A DNA stretch of 9,399 bases from a virus (taxonomy: Duplodnaviria; Heunggongvirae; Uroviricota; Caudoviricetes). A program made the position numbers and the translations under genes. The stretch is from IMG/VR virus record IMGVR_UViG_2667527789_000017, one strand, 5' to 3'. Of this stretch, positions 2,796-9,079 are shown piece after piece. The notes below the pieces were generated by a model. It had not been told where the DNA came from. It ran no database searches and worked only from the letters and a program-made list of their open reading frames with translations. Every line of letters begins with the position of its first letter. Position 1 is the first letter of the stretch.

Positions 2796-3677
2796 TTACA
2801 TAGATGTTTCGTTTAATTCTTCCCGACAAACGCTGTAAACGTCGGTGGCTTTTGCCAGCAGTTCGTCATCATCTGAAAGTTTTTGTGCAATGTATTTGTA
2901 AGCCTTATCCAGTTCGGAGACAGTGCTGTAATTCATCGCTGCGCTGGTAAAGGCCATCAGCATTTCTTCTGGATCACGGCTATCCGCTTTACGCGTTTGC
3001 TCATCATGCTTTTTCGCTGGTTTAGCGTTGATCAGACTGTTCATTCCCGCAGCAGTAGTCGTTTGCGGAGTAATGTCTCGCTCAACACGCGGTGCCGTTT
3101 CCTGTAATTCGTCAGGGGTGTAAACACCGAGAAGCACATCAGGAGCGTGCAGGCGAGCCCATCGTTTCGTGCAAAGATAGGCAAGCTGCTGGCGCGGATC
3201 CTGTTCCCACAATGGAGAGTTACGCACTCCGGCTTGCGCCATACTGATGGTAAGCTCACGGGGTTCTGCTTCTCCTTTAAGAACTGCTGACACAGTTACC
3301 GTCAGATTCGGTGATTTATCTGTTTTGCCGTTAACATTCGACCAGTCACCGCTCCAGCGATAATTCAGGCGTGTCGCTAGCAGGCTGGAAGAGGATACGA
3401 CCGCGTTTACCAACTGTGCTTCGTAGCCTAACGTTCCGTTTACCACATGCGTTTTCTGCGCCACGGCGAAAGGGTTCATTCCCCACTGTGCCGCCTGCAT
3501 GGTCACCGCCAGACAATCGGCAGGTTTGCCTTCAAGATGTTTCGGTACAGTCGCTTTGCTTTGTGACATCAACTCCGCGAAACGCACCAGTTGATTCATG
3601 CCCTCCGGGCTGAAGATTGCCGCAGCAGTACCTACAGTTGCGCCTGGTTGTGATGTGATTGCGATATCATTGCTCAT
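2796..3677 (-). CDS. bet: Bet/Redbeta-family single-strand annealing protein (RecT superfamily)
   Basis: 293-aa ORF; local similarity by eye to lambda Bet (window NPFAVAQK... / RQQLAYLCTKRWARLHAPDVLLGVYTPDELQE / RVERDITPQ versus lambda NPWTKEIYAF... / MLRHKAMIQCARLAFGFAGIYDKDEAER / ERQPERDITP). ATG at 3677 overlaps the exonuclease stop (ATGA). Confidence 0.85.
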   Translation of the reverse strand: MSNDIAITSQPGATVGTAAAIFSPEGMNQLVRFAELMSQSKATVPKHLEGKPADCLAVTMQAAQWGMNPFAVAQKTHVVNGTLGYEAQLVNAVVSSSSLLATRLNYRWSGDWSNVNGKTDKSPNLTVTVSAVLKGEAEPRELTISMAQAGVRNSPLWEQDPRQQLAYLCTKRWARLHAPDVLLGVYTPDELQETAPRVERDITPQTTTAAGMNSLINAKPAKKHDEQTRKADSRDPEEMLMAFTSAAMNYSTVSELDKAYKYIAQKLSDDDELLAKATDVYSVCREELNETSM

Positions 3678-4495
3678 ACGTACATATCCTGTTTACGTGC
3701 CCAGTCAGGGCGTTTAATAATTTCCACTCCGCCCCACTCATCGTTGATGCGGCATTCGTGATAGGTATTCAGATCCCGGCGGAACAGAGCGTGCCCGGCA
3801 TCGACATCCGGCGCATCCAGCTCGAACACGCGTACCGGATACCGACCACAATCAATGCTTTCGCTCACGGCAAGAAAGAAAAAACCATGCGGCTGACCAG
3901 TAACCCTCATTGCGCCTTCGCGGTACATTGCGTCCTGCACGTGGTAGCGGAATTCCTCGATGTGGCGTGCAAAACGGTCCATATCTGCAACCTTTTTCAC
4001 GTCGACGATCACGTTGTGCTCGTTCAGCCATTTGTCTGGACGAATGCGGCACAACTCACCAGTATCTTCATCGTTCCAGTACATTGATGCTTCGCAGTAA
4101 CCAGGTGCTTCCAGCATCCAGCGTGCCGCCGGGTGAGCCATTGCGCTATCACGCATCATCTCCAGTTTCCGCCACTGCTCGGCATCAAGTACCGTAATCC
4201 CCATATCCGCCACATCACGAAGAAATGCCTCTTCGTCAGCTTTACCTTGTTTCGTCCGACGATCGAATTTCGGTGAAACAATGAAGCGTTTGTCGAACTC
4301 TCCAGGCTCCAGAAGCAGACAGTGCAATGCGGTTCCCATATCCAGTGCAGACTTTTTCTCTTCGTCTTCTGGTGCTGCCTGAACCCATTTAAGAAGCGCC
4401 GGATTCTTGGCAACCATGTCCAGTTGCGACTTACTCACGCCGTCACCGGCGTGGTAGTCTTCGTTGCTGATGTCGAAATAAATTCCCGGTTTCAT
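3674..4495 (-). CDS. RecE-like PD-(D/E)XK exonuclease (exonuclease VIII C-terminal-domain type)
   Basis: 273-aa ORF beginning MKPGIYFDISNEDYHAGDGVSKSQL, the typical N-terminal signature of the short RecE-like / PDDEXK phage exonucleases; candidate catalytic residues in RIRPD ... IVDVKK (D ... D-x-K). Directly upstream of and translationally coupled to the annealing-protein gene. Confidence 0.8.
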   Translation of the reverse strand: MKPGIYFDISNEDYHAGDGVSKSQLDMVAKNPALLKWVQAAPEDEEKKSALDMGTALHCLLLEPGEFDKRFIVSPKFDRRTKQGKADEEAFLRDVADMGITVLDAEQWRKLEMMRDSAMAHPAARWMLEAPGYCEASMYWNDEDTGELCRIRPDKWLNEHNVIVDVKKVADMDRFARHIEEFRYHVQDAMYREGAMRVTGQPHGFFFLAVSESIDCGRYPVRVFELDAPDVDAGHALFRRDLNTYHECRINDEWGGVEIIKRPDWARKQDMYV

Positions 4496-4791
4496 GCCGC
4501 GTCCCTCTGTCCATCAAGCTGATCAGCCAGATCCCAGCGGGCGATAATTGCCATTGCCTCGCGCCGGTAGGAATCCATCAGTTCTTCGAACTCTGGACTG
4601 TCTTTAGCGGCCTCCAGTACTTCCTGGCGAACGCCTTTACCTGTTACAGCGTCGAAAGTTGAGGCTAGTTGATGAATCCGGATGCTCTCGATCAGTTCAA
4701 CTTGTCGGTCATATAGCTGTTCTGACAGGCGGTAGTCCTTGTCGAATGCCTGCATGATTTTTTGAAGATTTTTCTGCTGATTAACGTTCAT
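4492..4791 (-). CDS. Hypothetical protein (99 aa) preceding exo; function unknown
   Basis: ORF track gives start at 4806, but the internal ATG at 4791 is preceded by GGAGGG with 6-nt spacing (minus strand ATGGGAGGGCTGATAATG), so 4791 is the likelier start. Stop overlaps the exo ATG (ATGA). Acidic, helical-looking sequence with no recognisable family. Confidence 0.55.
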   Translation of the reverse strand: MNVNQQKNLQKIMQAFDKDYRLSEQLYDRQVELIESIRIHQLASTFDAVTGKGVRQEVLEAAKDSPEFEELMDSYRREAMAIIARWDLADQLDGQRDAA

Positions 4792-4793
4792 TA

Positions 4794-4946
4794 TCAGCCC
4801 TCCCATATCTCGTTATCGTTGGCCACATCGCGAGCTTCTTTGCTGACGAAAGCCCACTTAATGCCTTCCTGTAAGGTGCGGAACTTCCAGCTCATGAATC
4901 CGCATGCAGTAACGCAGTACCAACCGTTGATGATTTTCCACTGCAT
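4794..4946 (-). CDS. Candidate small ORF (50 aa, MQWKIINGWYCVTACGFMSWKFRTLQEGIKWAFVSKEARDVANDNEIWEG), first gene of the leftward operon
   Basis: Not in the supplied ORF track (below its size cutoff). ATG at 4946 is preceded by GAGGT about 8 nt upstream; stop TGA at 4796-4794 lies 2 nt before the next gene's ATG at 4791. Trp/Cys-rich hydrophobic N-terminal half. Sits immediately downstream of operator site 4966-4980. Confidence 0.3.
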   Translation of the reverse strand: MQWKIINGWYCVTACGFMSWKFRTLQEGIKWAFVSKEARDVANDNEIWEG

Positions 4947-4965: not shown

Positions 4966-4980
4966 TTACCTTTGAGGTAA
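4966..4980. promoter_or_regulatory. Operator-like palindrome TTACCTTTGAGGTAA (member of TTACC-N5-GGTAA family)
   Basis: Perfect 5-bp inverted half-sites with 5-bp spacer, directly read from sequence; just downstream of the pL-like promoter elements; an orphan TTACC half-site lies at 4953-4957. Confidence 0.7.
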
Positions 4981-4982
4981 TG

Positions 4983-5008
4983 ATTATGCGTATTTGGTTT
5001 GATGTCAA
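4983..5008 (-). promoter_or_regulatory. Putative leftward early promoter (pL-like)
   Basis: On the minus strand a consensus -35 TTGACA (+ strand 5003-5008) is followed by an A/T-rich -10 region CATAATCAT (+ strand 4980-4988). Exact -10 register is ambiguous (best hexamer CATAAT gives a 14-bp spacer). Flanked by operator sites at 4966-4980 and 5028-5042. Confidence 0.35.
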
Positions 5009-5027
5009 TAGATATGAGTTAAAAAAA

Positions 5028-5042
5028 TTACCTGCAAGGTAA
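5028..5042. promoter_or_regulatory. Operator-like palindrome TTACCTGCAAGGTAA
   Basis: Perfect TTACC-N5-GGTAA; centre 62 bp from the centre of site 4966-4980, upstream of the pL-like -35. Confidence 0.7.
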
Positions 5043-5099: not shown

Positions 5100-5684
5100 T
5101 TATTGTTTGCTTTTTTCGTTCTGGTTGATGACAAATTCAATGTAACTTTCGATCTTTGCTTTCTCGGTTTCGGGTAACAATGCGTAGCGCGAGCGGTCAT
5201 AGTTGATAGTCGCGGGGTCGTGCGGGTGAATCAGTAATTCATATCCGTGACGCCCGAATGCGGATGCAACATTCTCCAGGGTGGAAATGGAAACGCTGAC
5301 CTCATTGTTTAACAGGCGGCTGATTGTCACCTGGGCGACGCCGGATGCGCGGTGAAGTTTTCCCTGCGTTGAAAGGTCGCGGCTTTCGCTCATCCAGCGT
5401 TCCAGGTTGTGAGCCGCCAGCTGACCAATGTCGCTTGGTCCGACAGGCTGAAAACCTTCCTGAGAAAGCGAGCGATCGATATCAAGCCAGTTACGGGGTT
5501 TATTGGCGGCAGCTTCAATTTTTCGCGCAACCTGGTCGCCGATAACCTTCTTGCCAAGAGCCCAGCGGTTTACCAGATTTGCCTGAGTTCCAAGTTTTTC
5601 TGCCATCCGCGTCTGAACACCATTGAATTCACGGTCGATCAAGTCGTTGAGATTTTGCCTGCGGACGTCCTGGATACTTTTCAT
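5100..5684 (-). CDS. Prophage repressor (CI-like role) with two tandem Cro/C1-type HTH domains and no S24 peptidase domain
   Basis: 194-aa ORF divergent from a Cro-like gene across an operator-rich intergenic region. Two HTH_XRE-like segments: GVQTRMAEKLGTQANLVNRWALGKK and ASGVAQVTISRLLNNEVSVSISTLENVASAFG. C-terminus shows no LexA/CI-type autopeptidase signature. No SD within normal distance of the ATG at 5684, compatible with a leaderless or short-leader mRNA as for lambda cI from pRM. Confidence 0.75.
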   Translation of the reverse strand: MKSIQDVRRQNLNDLIDREFNGVQTRMAEKLGTQANLVNRWALGKKVIGDQVARKIEAAANKPRNWLDIDRSLSQEGFQPVGPSDIGQLAAHNLERWMSESRDLSTQGKLHRASGVAQVTISRLLNNEVSVSISTLENVASAFGRHGYELLIHPHDPATINYDRSRYALLPETEKAKIESYIEFVINQNEKSKQ

Positions 5685-5739: not shown

Positions 5740-5754
5740 TTACCCAACAGGTAA
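5740..5754. promoter_or_regulatory. Operator-like palindrome TTACCCAACAGGTAA (immunity region site 1)
   Basis: Perfect TTACC-N5-GGTAA in the divergent repressor/Cro intergenic region. Confidence 0.7.
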
Positions 5755-5756
5755 AT

Positions 5757-5771
5757 GCACCCCATAGGTAA
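5757..5771. promoter_or_regulatory. Operator-like site GCACCCCATAGGTAA (immunity region site 2, one half-site variant)
   Basis: Right half GGTAA perfect, left half GCACC instead of TTACC; centre 17 bp from site 1. Confidence 0.55.
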
Positions 5772-5777
5772 CTATCC

Positions 5778-5813
5778 TTGATTTTTGTTACCTTATGGGT
5801 GAATATTTATTAT
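5778..5813 (+). promoter_or_regulatory. Putative rightward promoter for the Cro-like gene (pR-like)
   Basis: Candidate -35 TTGTTA (5785-5790), 17-bp spacer, -10 TATTAT (5808-5813). Alternative -35 TTGATT (5778-5783) with -10 GAATAT (5801-5806). Operator site 3 overlaps the -35/spacer. Confidence 0.4.
5788..5802. promoter_or_regulatory. Operator-like site TTACCTTATGGGTGA (immunity region site 3, one half-site variant)
   Basis: Left half TTACC perfect, right half GGTGA (reverse complement TCACC, same variant class as GCACC). Lies in the spacer of the putative rightward promoter. Confidence 0.55.
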
Positions 5814-5838: not shown

Positions 5839-6069
5839 ATGAGCGATAACGGACATTTCGATTTCAAAAAGCACTGGCTTGCACTTACTCCGGATGAGCG
5901 TGAAGCCTTCGCACAGGAAGCCGGAACGACGAGTCACTATATCCAGACTCACTTAACAGGTAAGCGCAAAATGCCAGGTAAGGTATTGATGAATGGGCTT
6001 TTTAAAGCCTGTAAAACAAGACAATGGCTGAGCTCAAAAGCAGAACTGGCATACTTCTTCTACTCATGA
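5839..6069 (+). CDS. Cro-like small HTH DNA-binding protein
   Basis: 76-aa ORF divergent from the repressor. AFAQEAGTTSHYIQTHLTGKRKMPGKVLMNGLFKAC resembles the Cro/YdaS-type HTH layout (compare lambda Cro [29 protein letters not shown]). Followed by a strong terminator. Confidence 0.7.
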   Translation: MSDNGHFDFKKHWLALTPDEREAFAQEAGTTSHYIQTHLTGKRKMPGKVLMNGLFKACKTRQWLSSKAELAYFFYS

Positions 6070-6090: not shown

Positions 6091-6114
6091 AGACCGCCAT
6101 CCGGCGGTCTTTTC
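6091..6114 (+). terminator. Rho-independent terminator after the Cro-like gene (tR1-like position)
   Basis: Stem AGACCGCC (6091-6098), loop ATCC, stem GGCGGTCT (6103-6110), then TTTT (6111-6114); 22 bp after the Cro-like stop. Confidence 0.8.
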
Positions 6115-6124
6115 ATATCTATTC

Positions 6125-6139
6125 GCACCTCAAAGGTAA
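6125..6139. promoter_or_regulatory. Operator-like site GCACCTCAAAGGTAA immediately downstream of the Cro-gene terminator
   Basis: Same family (GCACC variant left half, perfect GGTAA right half); lies 11 bp after the terminator T-run and about 80 bp before the next gene. Confidence 0.5.
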
Positions 6140-6217
6140 CAAAAAACCAAATCTGGTTGATCAAATTTTCCAATTGTGCAAAATAGCCAATATCAATAAC
6201 AAAAAGGGGCAGAAAAA

Positions 6218-6430
6218 TTGAAGATAGTAACCAGAATGGAGGCCGCAAAAGCCGGGTTAAATCGCTATTTCACAGGAAAGCGGTGCCGTCACGGCCATCT
6301 CTCTGAAAGGTATGTTCTGAACGGAACATGTGTTGAATGTGCAATGAATAGCGCCAACCGCCATCGTAATGAATTTGCTTGTGCACTAAAGAGTGCAAGA
6401 GGGGAAACCTATGGCAAGCAGCTGGATTAA
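6218..6430 (+). CDS. Small protein with putative zinc-binding motif (C-x-H-x-H ... C-x2-C), function unknown
   Basis: 70-aa ORF from TTG at 6218 preceded by AAAGGGG 8 nt upstream; an internal ATG at 6236 has no SD. Motif GKRCRHGHLSERYVLNGTCVEC. Occupies the position between cro and the replication genes where lambda has cII, but shows no similarity to CII. 3' end overlaps the next gene by 20 nt. Confidence 0.5.
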   Translation: MKIVTRMEAAKAGLNRYFTGKRCRHGHLSERYVLNGTCVECAMNSANRHRNEFACALKSARGETYGKQLD

Positions 6431-7247
6431 GGTTGAAGTTATCACTCCTGATAAACCTGAAATTTTTCAGATAGCAGAAATTCTGGGTATTGATCCAGAT
6501 GCTGTTCTTGGAAAGCTGGTTCGTATATGGGCATGGGCTGACCAGCAAACAATAGACGGTAACGCTGGCAGCGTTACAAAAGGAGTACTTGATAGACTCG
6601 CTTTTATTACAGGATTTGCTGACGCCCTCATTAGCGTCGGATGGCTTGCTTATCATGACGGTAAACTAATTCTTCCAAACTTTGAGCGACACAATGGAGA
6701 ATCATCGAAAAAACGTGCACTTACGAATAGAAGAGTGGCAGAGCATCGAAAACGAGTAACGCAAAAAGTAACGCCAACAGCGTTACAAAAGGAGTTACCA
6801 GAGGAAGAGGAAGAGGAAGAGGAAGATATATATAAAACCCCACACATAGCGCACGTGCGCGAGGGTGCTCCGACCAGTGAAGCGAACGGTATGCCGTTGC
6901 AGGTGGCTGAACCTGAATTTCTGGATGGCCTGAGTGAACCCATCGGGAAATTTCCGATGACCGATGGTTGGCATCCGTCGCCGGATTTTCGACGGCGTGC
7001 TGTGCTGTGGGGAACGGCCCTGCCGGAACCGGAATTTACACCTGCTGAACTTGCTGCATTCCGGGATTACTGGATGGCTGAGGGCAAAGTGTTCACGCAG
7101 GTTCAGTGGGAACAAAAATTCGCCAGGCACGTAAATCATATCAGGGGAAAATCAAAAAACGCCGGGAAAAGCGATGAGCTTGACTGGAATAACACTGACT
7201 GGATAGAAGGGGTGTGGGATGAAATCAACTCCAGAACTTCTCAATGA
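6411..7247 (+). CDS. Replication initiation protein: phage replisome-organiser-like N-terminal region fused to a DnaT-like C-terminal domain
   Basis: ATG at 6411 preceded by AAGAGGGG with 6-nt spacing; the ORF-track start at 6393 has no SD. C-terminal IGKFPMTDGWHPSPDFRRRAVLWGTALPEPEFTPAELAAFRDYWMAEGKVFTQVQWEQKFARH aligns by eye with E. coli DnaT [61 protein letters not shown]. N-terminal SWIKVEVITPDKPEIFQIAEILGIDPDAVLGKLVRIWAWADQ resembles phage replisome-organiser N-domains. Central poly-Glu linker. Confidence 0.85.
   Translation: MASSWIKVEVITPDKPEIFQIAEILGIDPDAVLGKLVRIWAWADQQTIDGNAGSVTKGVLDRLAFITGFADALISVGWLAYHDGKLILPNFERHNGESSKKRALTNRRVAEHRKRVTQKVTPTALQKELPEEEEEEEEDIYKTPHIAHVREGAPTSEANGMPLQVAEPEFLDGLSEPIGKFPMTDGWHPSPDFRRRAVLWGTALPEPEFTPAELAAFRDYWMAEGKVFTQVQWEQKFARHVNHIRGKSKNAGKSDELDWNNTDWIEGVWDEINSRTSQ
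6559..6577. repeat. Inverted repeat GTAACGC-TGGCA-GCGTTAC followed by AAAAGGAGT (copy 1 of intragenic repeat)
   Basis: Directly read; 7-bp arms with 5-bp spacer, inside the replication-initiator gene. Confidence 0.7.
6756..6786. repeat. GTAACGC half-site (6756-6762) plus inverted repeat GTAACGC-CAACA-GCGTTAC (6768-6786) followed by AAAAGGAGT (copy 2)
   Basis: Shares GTAACGC ... CAGCGTTACAAAAGGAGT with copy 1 but sits in a different codon phase of the same gene (copy 1 starts at codon position 2, copy 2 at position 1), so the repeat is conserved at the DNA level rather than the protein level. Confidence 0.7.
6801..6824 (+). repeat. Hexanucleotide tandem repeat (GAGGAA)x4 encoding a poly-Glu linker
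   Basis: gaggaagaggaagaggaagaggaa read directly; translates as EEEEEEEE in the initiator gene and is followed by AT-rich GATATATATATAAAA. Confidence 0.9.
6849..6860. repeat. Perfect 12-bp palindrome GCGCACGTGCGC
   Basis: Read directly; lies just downstream of the AT-rich stretch inside the initiator gene. Confidence 0.7.
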
Positions 7248-7995
7248 GTACGATCGCTTACGTGAGCATGGTGTTGATGTGCATGAAGAGCGGCGTGGCA
7301 GCAATGGCAAAAAGGAGCAGGTTGCTAGAATTTTCAATGAACTATTTGTCCAGTTACAGGCTGCATTTCCTGCAAGCGTTTCGACCATAAGGGAGCAGAA
7401 CAAACTTAATGAATTCCGTAAGCAATGGATGCTTGCGTTTCTGGAGAATGGGATCACTACAATGGAACAGGTTAACGCTGGTATGCGCCACGCTCGCGCC
7501 AGTGAGTCTCCGTTCTGGCCGTCGCCAGGGCAATTCATCAAGTGGTGTAAAGACAGCAAGATGGTTCTTGGCGTCACCATTGACGATGTGATGGCGGAGT
7601 TTCACCGGTACAGCAAGGAAAAAAGTTTATATCCTGGTGGTCCCGAAAGATTCCCGTGGTGGCATCCGGTTATGTACTGGGTCGTATGTGATACCCGCCG
7701 TGCAATGTATCAGCGCCAGCTTAGCGAGATTGAGGTTGAGAAACACGCGCGCAGGCTGCTCGATGATTGGGCGAAAAAGGTGGCTTCCGGACAGCAGATA
7801 CCCGATCCGGTGATCAGCATACAGGCAAAGCCAGAACCCATGAGTACGCCTCCGGACACAGGGAGAGACGTTTACCATCCACCAGGGCGAAGTTTCGGGT
7901 GTATGCCTAACGCCGCCACCCTGGGGGGAATAACACCGGCGCAGTGGCTGATGGAGGAATGCAGGCGGGGAAAGGCGTCAGGATTTATCAAGTAA
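7219..7995 (+). CDS. P: Replication protein P homologue (lambda P-like helicase-loader)
   Basis: 258-aa ORF; VARIFNELFVQLQAAFPASVSTIREQNKLNEFRKQWMLAFLENGITTMEQVNAGMRHARASESPFWPSPGQFIKWC is near-colinear with lambda P VAQIINGVFSQLLATFPASLANRDQNEVNEIRRQWVLAFRENGITTMEQVNAGMRVARRQNRPFLPSPGQFVAWC. ATG at 7219 preceded by GAAGGGG; overlaps the 3' end of the initiator gene by 29 nt. Confidence 0.9.
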   Translation: MKSTPELLNEYDRLREHGVDVHEERRGSNGKKEQVARIFNELFVQLQAAFPASVSTIREQNKLNEFRKQWMLAFLENGITTMEQVNAGMRHARASESPFWPSPGQFIKWCKDSKMVLGVTIDDVMAEFHRYSKEKSLYPGGPERFPWWHPVMYWVVCDTRRAMYQRQLSEIEVEKHARRLLDDWAKKVASGQQIPDPVISIQAKPEPMSTPPDTGRDVYHPPGRSFGCMPNAATLGGITPAQWLMEECRRGKASGFIK

Positions 7996-8000
7996 TACCA

Positions 8001-8020
8001 GCGCGATAGCGCATTTTTTT
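8001..8020 (+). terminator. Weak candidate intrinsic terminator after the P-like gene
   Basis: Short stem GCGC (8001-8004), loop GATA, stem GCGC (8009-8012), then A and TTTTTTT (8014-8020). Only a 4-bp stem, so low confidence. Confidence 0.3.
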
Positions 8021-8032
8021 ACGCCTCGATAA

Positions 8033-8047
8033 TTACCTGTTGGGTAA
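8033..8047. promoter_or_regulatory. Operator-like palindrome TTACCTGTTGGGTAA
   Basis: Perfect TTACC-N5-GGTAA, upstream of the promoter-like elements that precede the gene at 8113. Confidence 0.7.
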
Positions 8048-8066
8048 TAAAATATTCTAAAATCTA

Positions 8067-8095
8067 TTGATTTAGTGTCTTATGTGGTTTTTAAT
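8067..8095 (+). promoter_or_regulatory. Putative sigma70 promoter for the downstream operon
   Basis: -35 TTGATT (8067-8072), 17-bp spacer, -10 TTTAAT (8090-8095); predicted start site falls inside operator site 8096-8110. Confidence 0.45.
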
Positions 8096-8110
8096 TACCT
8101 TAGAGGTAAA
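8096..8110. promoter_or_regulatory. Operator-like palindrome TTACCTTAGAGGTAA overlapping the transcription start and RBS of the gene at 8113
   Basis: Perfect TTACC-N5-GGTAA; its GAGG doubles as the Shine-Dalgarno sequence 6 nt before ATG 8113; centre 63 bp from the centre of site 8033-8047. Confidence 0.7.
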
Positions 8111-8112
8111 TC

Positions 8113-8457
8113 ATGAGAAAACAGATACAGGCTCTTGGTCGACTCAAAACAGGCCAGATGAACAAAACAGAATCTGCGTATTGCCAGCACCTTGAGCTGC
8201 GTAAACGTGCAGGAGAAATCGTCTGGTATCGATTTGAGGGTATCAAGCTGCGGTTAGCTGACAACACGTTCTATACGCCCGATTTTGCTGTGATGCTCGC
8301 CACCGGCGAGATGGAACTGCACGAAGTGAAAGGTTTCTGGACCGACGACGCCAGGGTGAAAACCAAAGTCGCCGCAGATCAGTATCCGTTCCGAATCATC
8401 GGGGTAACGGTTAAACCAAAGAAAGCAGGTGGTGGCTGGAACATCGAAGAGTTCTGA
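8113..8457 (+). CDS. DUF1064-like phage protein with PD-(D/E)XK nuclease-type motif (putative structure-specific nuclease)
   Basis: 114-aa ORF; FYTPDFAVM ... ELHEVKG gives a D ... E-x-K arrangement typical of PD-(D/E)XK nucleases. Overall pattern recalls the DUF1064 family of small phage proteins, assigned from memory only. Confidence 0.6.
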   Translation: MRKQIQALGRLKTGQMNKTESAYCQHLELRKRAGEIVWYRFEGIKLRLADNTFYTPDFAVMLATGEMELHEVKGFWTDDARVKTKVAADQYPFRIIGVTVKPKKAGGGWNIEEF

Positions 8458-8518: not shown

Positions 8519-9079
8519 ATGGAAAGTAATATCAAAGGGTTAGTTGCCGCCGGGCATGAGATGGCTTCGGAACTGAAAGCAGAATGCGGTGCCGTTGATA
8601 TGCGCAGTGTGGCAAAGCTGATCAGCGATTTGGCAACGCAACTGGAAGTGCAACTGGTGCGTGCTAATGCGCTGGCCGAAGACCAGCAGAAAGCGATTGA
8701 GTCAATTAAGCAGGCTGATTCGGCTGTTAAGTTGGCACACGAGAAGTTTTCGGCGCTTGCGGCGGAGAATGAACTGGCTCGTAAGGCAGTTCAGGCATTC
8801 TGCGATGTTGTTGGCGACAACACCGAGGTTATCGCTGAGGAGGTTGGGCGAGATGGCGTTCTGGTTATTTTGGAGGCCATGAAGGCAACAGGAAATATGC
8901 CAGCCACCGATGCTTTCCTGTCGGATGTGCGGGCTGGGGCGTTTAACGACCTTTGCGCGGCGTTCGTTAAGGACGCGACGGTTGTCGGGCTGGACGATGG
9001 CGACATCGTTACGGTGAAAGAAGCGAAGGACGCCCTGCTGCATTGTGCGGAACAGCTTCGCAAAGGAGGCAACCAGTGA
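8519..9079 (+). CDS. Hypothetical phage protein (186 aa, Ala-rich, acidic, predicted helical)
   Basis: ORF preceded by GAGGG 5 nt before ATG 8519; consistent coding frame; stop TGA at 9077-9079 overlaps the GTG start of the next ORF. No family recognised. Confidence 0.6.
   Translation: MESNIKGLVAAGHEMASELKAECGAVDMRSVAKLISDLATQLEVQLVRANALAEDQQKAIESIKQADSAVKLAHEKFSALAAENELARKAVQAFCDVVGDNTEVIAEEVGRDGVLVILEAMKATGNMPATDAFLSDVRAGAFNDLCAAFVKDATVVGLDDGDIVTVKEAKDALLHCAEQLRKGGNQ

Follow-up and report, generated by a model that had tools for sequence, protein, structure and literature searches.

A terminator-operator-promoter cassette probably gated by the immunity repressor heads the post-replication genes of an epsilon15/phiV10-like prophage

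The DNA that joins the replication genes to the accessory genes of this prophage (positions 7996-8112 of the window, i.e. of the whole stretch of 9,399 nucleotides from the IMG/VR record IMGVR_UViG_2667527789_000017 that was analysed) is probably a standard cassette of the genus Uetakevirus, in which a terminator, a distal operator, a promoter, a proximal operator and a ribosome-binding site follow each other and which is gated by the immunity repressor Rep. The initial annotation had proposed that a separate promoter under direct control of the immunity repressor heads the post-replication module, and comparison strongly supports this view, because the same motif flanks rep, the operator half-sites are invariant, the geometry is that of pL, and terminators stand in series upstream. 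It had also called the arrangement unusual, which is true only when it is measured against lambda; in phages of the epsilon15/phiV10 type this operator stands before nearly all transcription units, and it is already annotated in epsilon15. Direct repressor control of the post-replication genes is an already annotated design of the genus, and published phage genomes contain nearly identical cassettes, so that the current understanding is unchanged and the proposal contained in the epsilon15 annotation is confirmed and quantified. Our analysis adds how strong the constraint is, that the operators are paired at an invariant 62 bp as they are at pL, and that the cassette is independent of both of its flanks. 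Rep binding, promoter activity, the start point and looping at 7996-8112 are what we infer from the comparisons given below.

By DNA similarity the window is closest to podoviruses of the epsilon15/phiV10 type, genus Uetakevirus, its relatives at the DNA level being phiV10, TL-2011b, vB_EcoP_ZX5, SPN1S/SPC32H and epsilon15. Judged from its sequence, the prophage is epsilon15/phiV10-like and its regulation is not lambdoid. The window segment is present in 530 of the 5426 complete E. coli genomes, i.e. in about one out of ten. The genes and control regions around the cassette are arranged in the following order:

1-1251: integrase, the first gene of the window
After the integrase: leftward early operon with methyltransferase, RecT and exonuclease genes
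5100-5684, minus strand: immunity repressor Rep, 194 aa, with two HTH regions and a match to PDB 5d50
5740-5802: OR region between rep and the cro-like gene, with a perfect site at 5740, a site with 2 mismatches at 5757 and a site with 1 mismatch at 5788
5839-6069: cro-like gene, matching the 'transcriptional repressor' family phrog_35
6091-6110, plus strand: strong terminator after the cro-like gene (-15 kcal/mol, z = -5.35), which parts pR from the replication unit
6218-6430: small gene following the cro-like gene
6393-7247: DnaT/O-like replication gene
7219-7995, plus strand: lambda-P-like replication gene, the last of the replication unit (PF06992, E 5.7e-55)
8113-8457, plus strand: DUF1064 gene, the first of the gated module (PF06356; phrog_190, E 7e-43)
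8519-9079: eae-like gene

The product of the DUF1064 gene is, from its phrog_190 match, a predicted nuclease of the Holliday-junction-resolvase type. As a side observation, a run of GAA codons (around 6790-6830) gives the replication initiator, the product of the O/DnaT-like gene 6393-7247, a central EEEEEEEE; the stretch could represent a linker, or it could adjoin the replication origin as in lambda O.

The elements of the cassette itself are placed as follows:

8001-8020, plus strand: weak intrinsic terminator with a 4-bp GCGC stem, a GAUA loop and a U7 tail
8033-8047: distal operator TTACCtgttgGGTAA, a perfect TTACC-N5-GGTAA site centred at about -62 from the predicted start
8048-8066, plus strand: A/T-rich block between the distal operator and the -35 hexamer, with TAAAATAT conserved
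8067-8072, plus strand: -35 hexamer TTGATT, inside the conserved CTATTGA
8080-8090, plus strand: conserved motif TTATGTGGTTT inside the promoter spacer
8090-8096, plus strand: -10 region, TTTAAT in the 17-bp register (8090-8095) or TTAATT in the 18-bp register
8095-8109: proximal operator TTACCttagaGGTAA, a perfect TTACC-N5-GGTAA site

The weak terminator directly 3' of the P-like gene, the AT-rich gap and the two perfect operators, one of them lying over the start site and ribosome-binding site of the next gene, had all been described in the initial annotation and were found again here. The terminator consists of GCGC (8001-8004), GAUA, GCGC (8009-8012) and U7 (8014-8020), hence of a G+C-rich hairpin with a U-run directly attached, and its fold reaches -7.4 kcal/mol (z = -2.9). 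It is regarded as weak because the 4-bp stem stays under the 5-pair threshold of the scan, and it is also weak in comparison with the -15 kcal/mol of the terminator at 6091-6110. Nevertheless its 5' arm is kept across the 86 cassette variants described below, and in the phiV10 record the orthologous hairpin is annotated as a putative terminator. The DNA that follows is rich in A and T, with only 27% G+C in 8013-8112 compared with 49% in the window as a whole.

The proximal operator shares its first base with the last base of the -10 region, ends 3 nt 5' of the ATG at 8113 and overlaps both the predicted start (around 8102-8104) and the Shine-Dalgarno sequence GAGG at 8103-8106. Altogether five perfect TTACC-N5-GGTAA sites occur in the window, where 0.01 would be expected, and none of 200 shuffled sequences reached this number. 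The other sites of the window, three perfect and two imperfect ones at 4966, 5028, 5740, 5757 and 5788, flank rep. By every criterion that could be applied to the sequence, 8033-8047 and 8095-8109 would be members of the operator set of the epsilon15/SPC32H type of Rep: the half-sites agree, the cognate Rep is encoded in the window, the motif recurs at pL and between rep and the cro-like gene, epsilon15 has an orthologous site, and the half-sites are under constraint.

The promoter between the operators had been considered a good one. The combination TTGATT-17-TTTAAT is indeed present and matches the consensus at 9 of 12 positions, but "good" was too generous, because the second position of the -10 hexamer is T instead of the critical A. 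In this E. coli lineage A at -11 is absent in both registers, which is why the promoter was not listed by the consensus scan, and the predicted strength of 8067-8095 is only moderate. Variants of the cassette from Salmonella, Klebsiella and Enterobacter have TAAATT or TATAAA as -10. The predicted leader measures about 10 nt and carries the Shine-Dalgarno sequence at its 5' end. The A/T-rich block at 8048-8066 might possibly serve as a partial UP element or as bendable DNA. Other arrangements of this segment were discarded. A promoter TCGATA(8026)-16-TAAAAT(8053), whose spacer would contain the distal operator, would have its -35 in the least conserved region of the cassette (mean information of 0.85 bits); a promoter-like match on the minus strand (8081-8054) has its -10 only in the E. 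coli lineage; and a near-match to an IHF site over the -35 hexamer exists only in the TTGATT variants, being absent from the TTGAAA variants and from pL. No LexA box was seen by eye in 7996-8112.

The motif inside the promoter spacer is conserved in its own right, with T8083 and T8085 invariant and G8086 and G8087 above 90% in the 86 variants; for the motif ATATGTGGTTT no consistent register relative to the -10 was found. In related phages the spacer motif, in the form ATATGTGGTT(T/A), recurs 45-57 bp 3' of a repressor site before the operons for head, tail-fibre and lysis proteins, namely at 3309, 20922, 24740 and 35117 in phiV10 (L003), at 2989, 24752 and 35954 in epsilon15 (L007) and at 3260 and 24856 in SPN1S (L006). 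When up to one mismatch is allowed, 3-5 matches per genome are obtained compared with about 0.6-0.7 in shuffled sequences. The motif may be an element of middle or late promoters, or it may be bound by the regulator that is encoded at the end of the operon.

The conservation of the cassette was assessed in a sample obtained by an IMG/VR search seeded on the terminator, i.e. outside the operators, together with phage records. It comprised 108 instances and 86 distinct cassette variants, whereas 23 other seed matches were left out, 21 as unrelated (about 18-36% identity, which is the level of chance) and 2 because the loci were too short. All 86 variants could be aligned without indels, hence the spacing of 62 bp between the operators is invariant. 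A single mismatch was counted in the 1720 cells of the 20 half-site columns (1 of 860 for the proximal site), compared with 201 mismatches in the 430 cells of the distal N5 centre, which exists in 34 versions. The proximal centre is less free because it doubles as Shine-Dalgarno sequence. Two invariant arms around a free centre, without compensatory changes, point to a palindrome that is bound by protein and not to an RNA stem. Regarding the promoter, the TTG of the -35 hexamer and the preceding TAT are invariant; TTGATT was found in 50, TTGAAA in 14 and TTGATA in 13 variants, and the most frequent -10 hexamers are TTTAAT (41), TTAAAT (32) and ATAAAT (10). The distances between neighbouring perfect sites over all loci, counted as unique pairs, were 62 bp in 115 cases, 63 bp in 11, 61 bp in 2, 17 bp in 7 and 75-76 bp in 11. 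In a Serratia prophage, the most distant relative examined (L013, 3721-3753), the post-replication site consists of two adjacent copies at a distance of 18 bp and not of a 62-bp pair, which indicates that the paired architecture is not universal.

It had further been suggested that prophages be compared in order to see whether the cassette travels with its downstream genes. This is not the case, as the cassette occurs with either upstream and either downstream gene. The gene on its 5' side is lambda-P-like at 68 loci, DnaT-like at 27 and another one at 2, the gene on its 3' side is DUF1064 at 86 loci and a RuvC-like resolvase at 18, and all four main combinations exist. Across the loci compared the cassette forms a fixed boundary at which the replication and accessory modules meet. 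Since DUF1064 matches a Holliday-junction-resolvase family, the DUF1064 and RuvC-like products are likely functional analogues.

A second unit with the same design is present at pL, on the other side of rep:

4966-5042, minus strand: pL cassette, with the distal operator at 5028-5042 and the proximal operator at 4966-4980
5008-4980, minus strand: pL promoter, with -35 TTGACA (5008-5003), a 17-bp spacer and -10 AATCAT (4985-4980)

One of the pL operators is situated 19 bp 5' of the -35 hexamer, the other extends from the last base of the -10, and their centres are 62 bp apart, which is exactly the geometry of the 8033-8109 cassette. Furthermore, pL can be aligned without gaps to 8020-8116, whereby AATTACC-N5-GGTAAT, CTATTGA and ATTACC-N5-GGTAA are common to both, and each cassette has a terminator on its 5' side and a GAGGTAA ribosome-binding site on its 3' side. 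Because pL must be a promoter, this likeness supports a promoter function at 8067-8096.

At the head of the replication unit stands a third cassette of this grammar (window 6091-6215, beginning with the strong terminator at 6091-6110). It comprises an imperfect operator GCACCtcaaaGGTAA at 6125-6139, the conserved GGTTGATC with the -35 at 6157-6162, and a -10 of the CAAAAT type. Where the -10 ends, a degenerate proximal site begins in relatives (TTACCGTAATAGTAA in BUCT554); its counterpart in the window is decayed, and the operators are weaker than those at pL and 8033-8109. Between pR and 8113 two terminators stand in series (6091-6110 and 8001-8020). An N-like arginine-rich protein was not found at the head of the pL operon, where the first ORFs (4794-4946 and 4492-4806, minus strand) encode products that are not rich in arginine and match no family. 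Owing to the serial terminators, the third cassette and the lack of an N-like protein there, the rightward early region looks like three separately gated units (cro; replication; accessory genes plus regulator) and not like one antiterminated transcript.

The protein that should act on these sites is homologous to a structurally characterised repressor. Rep matches SPC32H Rep (PDB 5d50) over its full length (residues 1-190, E 3.5e-42), and Pfam assigns only HTH families to it, an S24 autocleavage/peptidase domain being not found. A preprint describes SPC32H Rep as a tetramer that binds palindromic DNA in this form (bioRxiv 10.1101/2021.09.07.459249). The solved Rep structures are tetramers, reportedly with two DNA-binding pairs, and secondary sources state that SPC32H Rep is inactivated by an antirepressor. 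Another study (PMC9986798) connects its tetramerisation fold with the DNA looping of Rco and p53. The homologues of Rep that were found, with 42-100% identity, from E. coli, Salmonella, Klebsiella, Enterobacter, Serratia and Raoultella all come with TTACC-N5-GGTAA sites, and in their alignment the invariant residues are denser in the N-terminal DNA-binding part than in the C-terminal part. An alignment-based search for diverged Rep loci returned only loci with 99-100% identity. The operator specificity appears to be frozen across the genus. In phiV10 (L003, 20822-20837), outside of the window, a LexA-box-like sequence CTGTATAAATACACAG was noticed just 5' of the small minus-strand gene gp24 and near the repressor site at 20877. 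The antirepressor promoter of SPC32H is said to be LexA-controlled, which the phiV10 sequence would fit.

Other readings of the cassette have to be weighed against Rep gating. The Rep sites might work only as a roadblock, i.e. as 'stoperators' that reinforce the weak terminator against read-through from promoters farther upstream, without a working promoter between them, in which case lytic expression would depend on read-through. The -10, which is without A at -11 in this lineage and escaped the scan, the leader that would be very short, and the position of the sites directly 3' of a weak terminator would be in line with such a role. It is nonetheless unlikely, because CTATTGA and TTG are invariant at a fixed distance from the operators in the 86 variants and are common to pL, which is necessarily a promoter, because the variants from Salmonella, Klebsiella and Enterobacter possess a proper TAAATT or TATAAA -10, and because two serial terminators together with the lack of an N-like protein make read-through improbable as the sole source of transcripts. 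The inverted repeats could also be taken as RNA hairpins or as chance palindromes with no protein-binding role. Both repeats do fold, though weakly (-5.5 and -4.2 kcal/mol), the proximal fold having an energy that shuffled sequences also reach (z = -1.75; 15 of 200 as good or better) and the distal one being weak as well (z = -2.29; 2 of 200 as good or better). The invariant half-sites, the variable loop and the lack of compensatory changes argue for recognition by a protein, no Rfam match was found in the window, and chance is excluded by five observed sites compared with 0.01 expected. Site excess, conservation pattern and fold energies effectively refute this reading, which we regard as extremely improbable.

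It might be further considered that a lytic regulator, either the cro-like protein (5839-6069) or another phage regulator, times or lowers the expression of the operon and that Rep is of secondary importance. The cro-like gene belongs by its match to a family of transcriptional repressors (phrog_35), Cro and repressor share their operators in lambda-type switches, and the second conserved motif of the cassette hints at another factor; the cro-like protein may therefore bind the TTACC-N5-GGTAA sites as well. Such an activity would be compatible with Rep control and does not exclude it. Moreover, the motif brackets rep on both sides like OL and OR, the curators of the epsilon15 record assign it to the repressor, and pairs at a distance of 62 bp fit a protein with two DNA-binding units such as the tetrameric Rep. 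A main role of a lytic regulator, with Rep in the background, is hence quite improbable.

Gating by Rep as the preferred reading would work in the following way. In the lysogen, Rep would hold both palindromes, whose centres fall near -62 and +1 of a sigma-70 promoter with a spacer of 17-18 bp. Occupation of both sites would block initiation and would also stop the leak through the weak terminator. After removal of Rep by the antirepressor, the promoter would fire, and expression would extend from the gene of the DUF1064 nuclease over the eae-like gene to the remaining accessory operon. In complete relatives, this operon closes with the gene of a predicted transcriptional regulator (phrog_536), which is situated directly before the packaging genes. 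Probably, one Rep tetramer would hold both sites at once, over a distance of 62 bp or approximately 5.9-6 helical turns. Bridging by one tetramer is plausible because of the rigid 62-bp spacing, the tetrameric state of Rep and the fold that is tied to looping in Rco; the loop would enclose 47 bp and would be very tight, which counts against it.

Among known systems, epsilon15 (NC_004775.2) offers the closest parallel. Its record contains 'protein_bind: repressor, lysogeny' features before many units, including the late operons, and the feature at 35906-35922, a predicted site located after the replication genes, is the orthologue of window 8033-8047. Both have the 17-bp ATTACC-N5-GGTAAT, the terminator and CTATTGA in common, and a second epsilon15 site lies at 35969-35983. 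The phages differ in that only the distal site is annotated in epsilon15 and in that a DnaT-like gene stands 5' and a RuvC-like gene 3' of it, where the window has the P-like and the DUF1064 genes. In SPN1S and SPC32H the same cassette is present, again with its operators 62 bp apart. Their Rep-Ant switch (PDB 5D50, 5D4Z) relies on a non-cleavable, tetrameric, palindrome-binding Rep, to which the Rep of the window is about 42-50% identical; the antirepressor gene of our prophage lies outside the window.

With lambda OL/OR the window has in common palindromic operators that overlap the early promoters to either side of the repressor gene, and also a P-like gene and a terminator after cro. In lambda there are no operators after P, and the downstream genes are reached by N-antiterminated transcripts from pR. 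The window differs in that no N-like gene was found, Rep has no S24 domain, and 62-bp pairs bracket the promoter instead of three adjacent sites. The 8033-8109 cassette thus resembles an operator-promoter of the lambda pL type, placed where lambda has none. Dispersed-operator immunity is known from P1, with C1 operators across the genome, and from mycobacteriophage L5, with its gp71 'stoperators'. In these phages, as in the relatives of our prophage, one repressor has many sites across the genome before many transcription units, but the proteins are unrelated and the sites asymmetric, whereas the sites of the window are perfect palindromes, arranged at two promoters as pairs at a fixed distance. 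For a very short loop, Rco of the Bacillus plasmid pLS20 gives a precedent, since this protein is reported to loop DNA between operators 75 bp apart at divergent promoters (PMC9986798) and its tetramerisation fold is common with SPC32H Rep. In contrast to the looping which we infer for Rep, the Rco system uses multiple direct repeats and several tetramers, and Rco has no sequence homology to the DNA-binding domain of Rep.

In complete relatives the motif also occurs outside the immunity region. The phiV10 genome, 93.5% of which is coding as annotated, contains 14 sites with at most one mismatch, all of which are effectively intergenic: 12 of them are found in annotated intergenic DNA and the other 2 in what seems to be a wrongly called N-terminal extension of the small terminase. 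They precede the units for packaging, head, tail fibre, lysis, integrase, pL, pR/pRM, replication and post-replication functions. In epsilon15 (L007) and SPN1S (L006), TTACC-N5-GGTAA sites are likewise present before almost every transcription unit. With respect to the small terminase of phiV10 (L003, 41-125), the annotated TTG start at 41 takes in a hairpin gccgccaactatggcggc with a T-run and the sites at 87-101 and 105-119. TL-2011b and epsilon15 use the ATG at about 122, and this seems to be the likelier start.

Tentatively, and with more doubt than confidence, these observations can be extended to a model for the whole genus, in which one tetrameric Rep would act as gatekeeper, forming micro-loops over the 62-bp pairs at pL and at the post-replication promoter and binding single or adjacent sites on all other units, late operons included; antitermination would not be needed, and the specificity would be frozen by the approximately 14 operators, with one half-site retained from E. 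coli to Serratia phages while Rep identity drops to about 42-52%. If this were true, differences in immunity should arise elsewhere, for example at the antirepressor interface as in P1 and P7. In annotation, the lambda template is not suited to this prophage; the repressor seems to be placed at almost all promoters. The fixed 62-bp pair in combination with a solved tetrameric repressor represents a clean model in which very short repression loops can be tested. There are several reporter phages of the phiV10 type, and for phage engineering the cassette could be of use as a compact promoter that Rep should be able to switch.

Some points touch the related phage vB_EcoP_ZX5. In the paper on this phage four promoters were predicted, without operator detail, and the attachment site was reported at the 3' end of guaA. 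In a Raoultella relative (L015, 12223-12585) the integrase gene abuts the GMP synthase gene (guaA), which agrees with an attachment site at this position.
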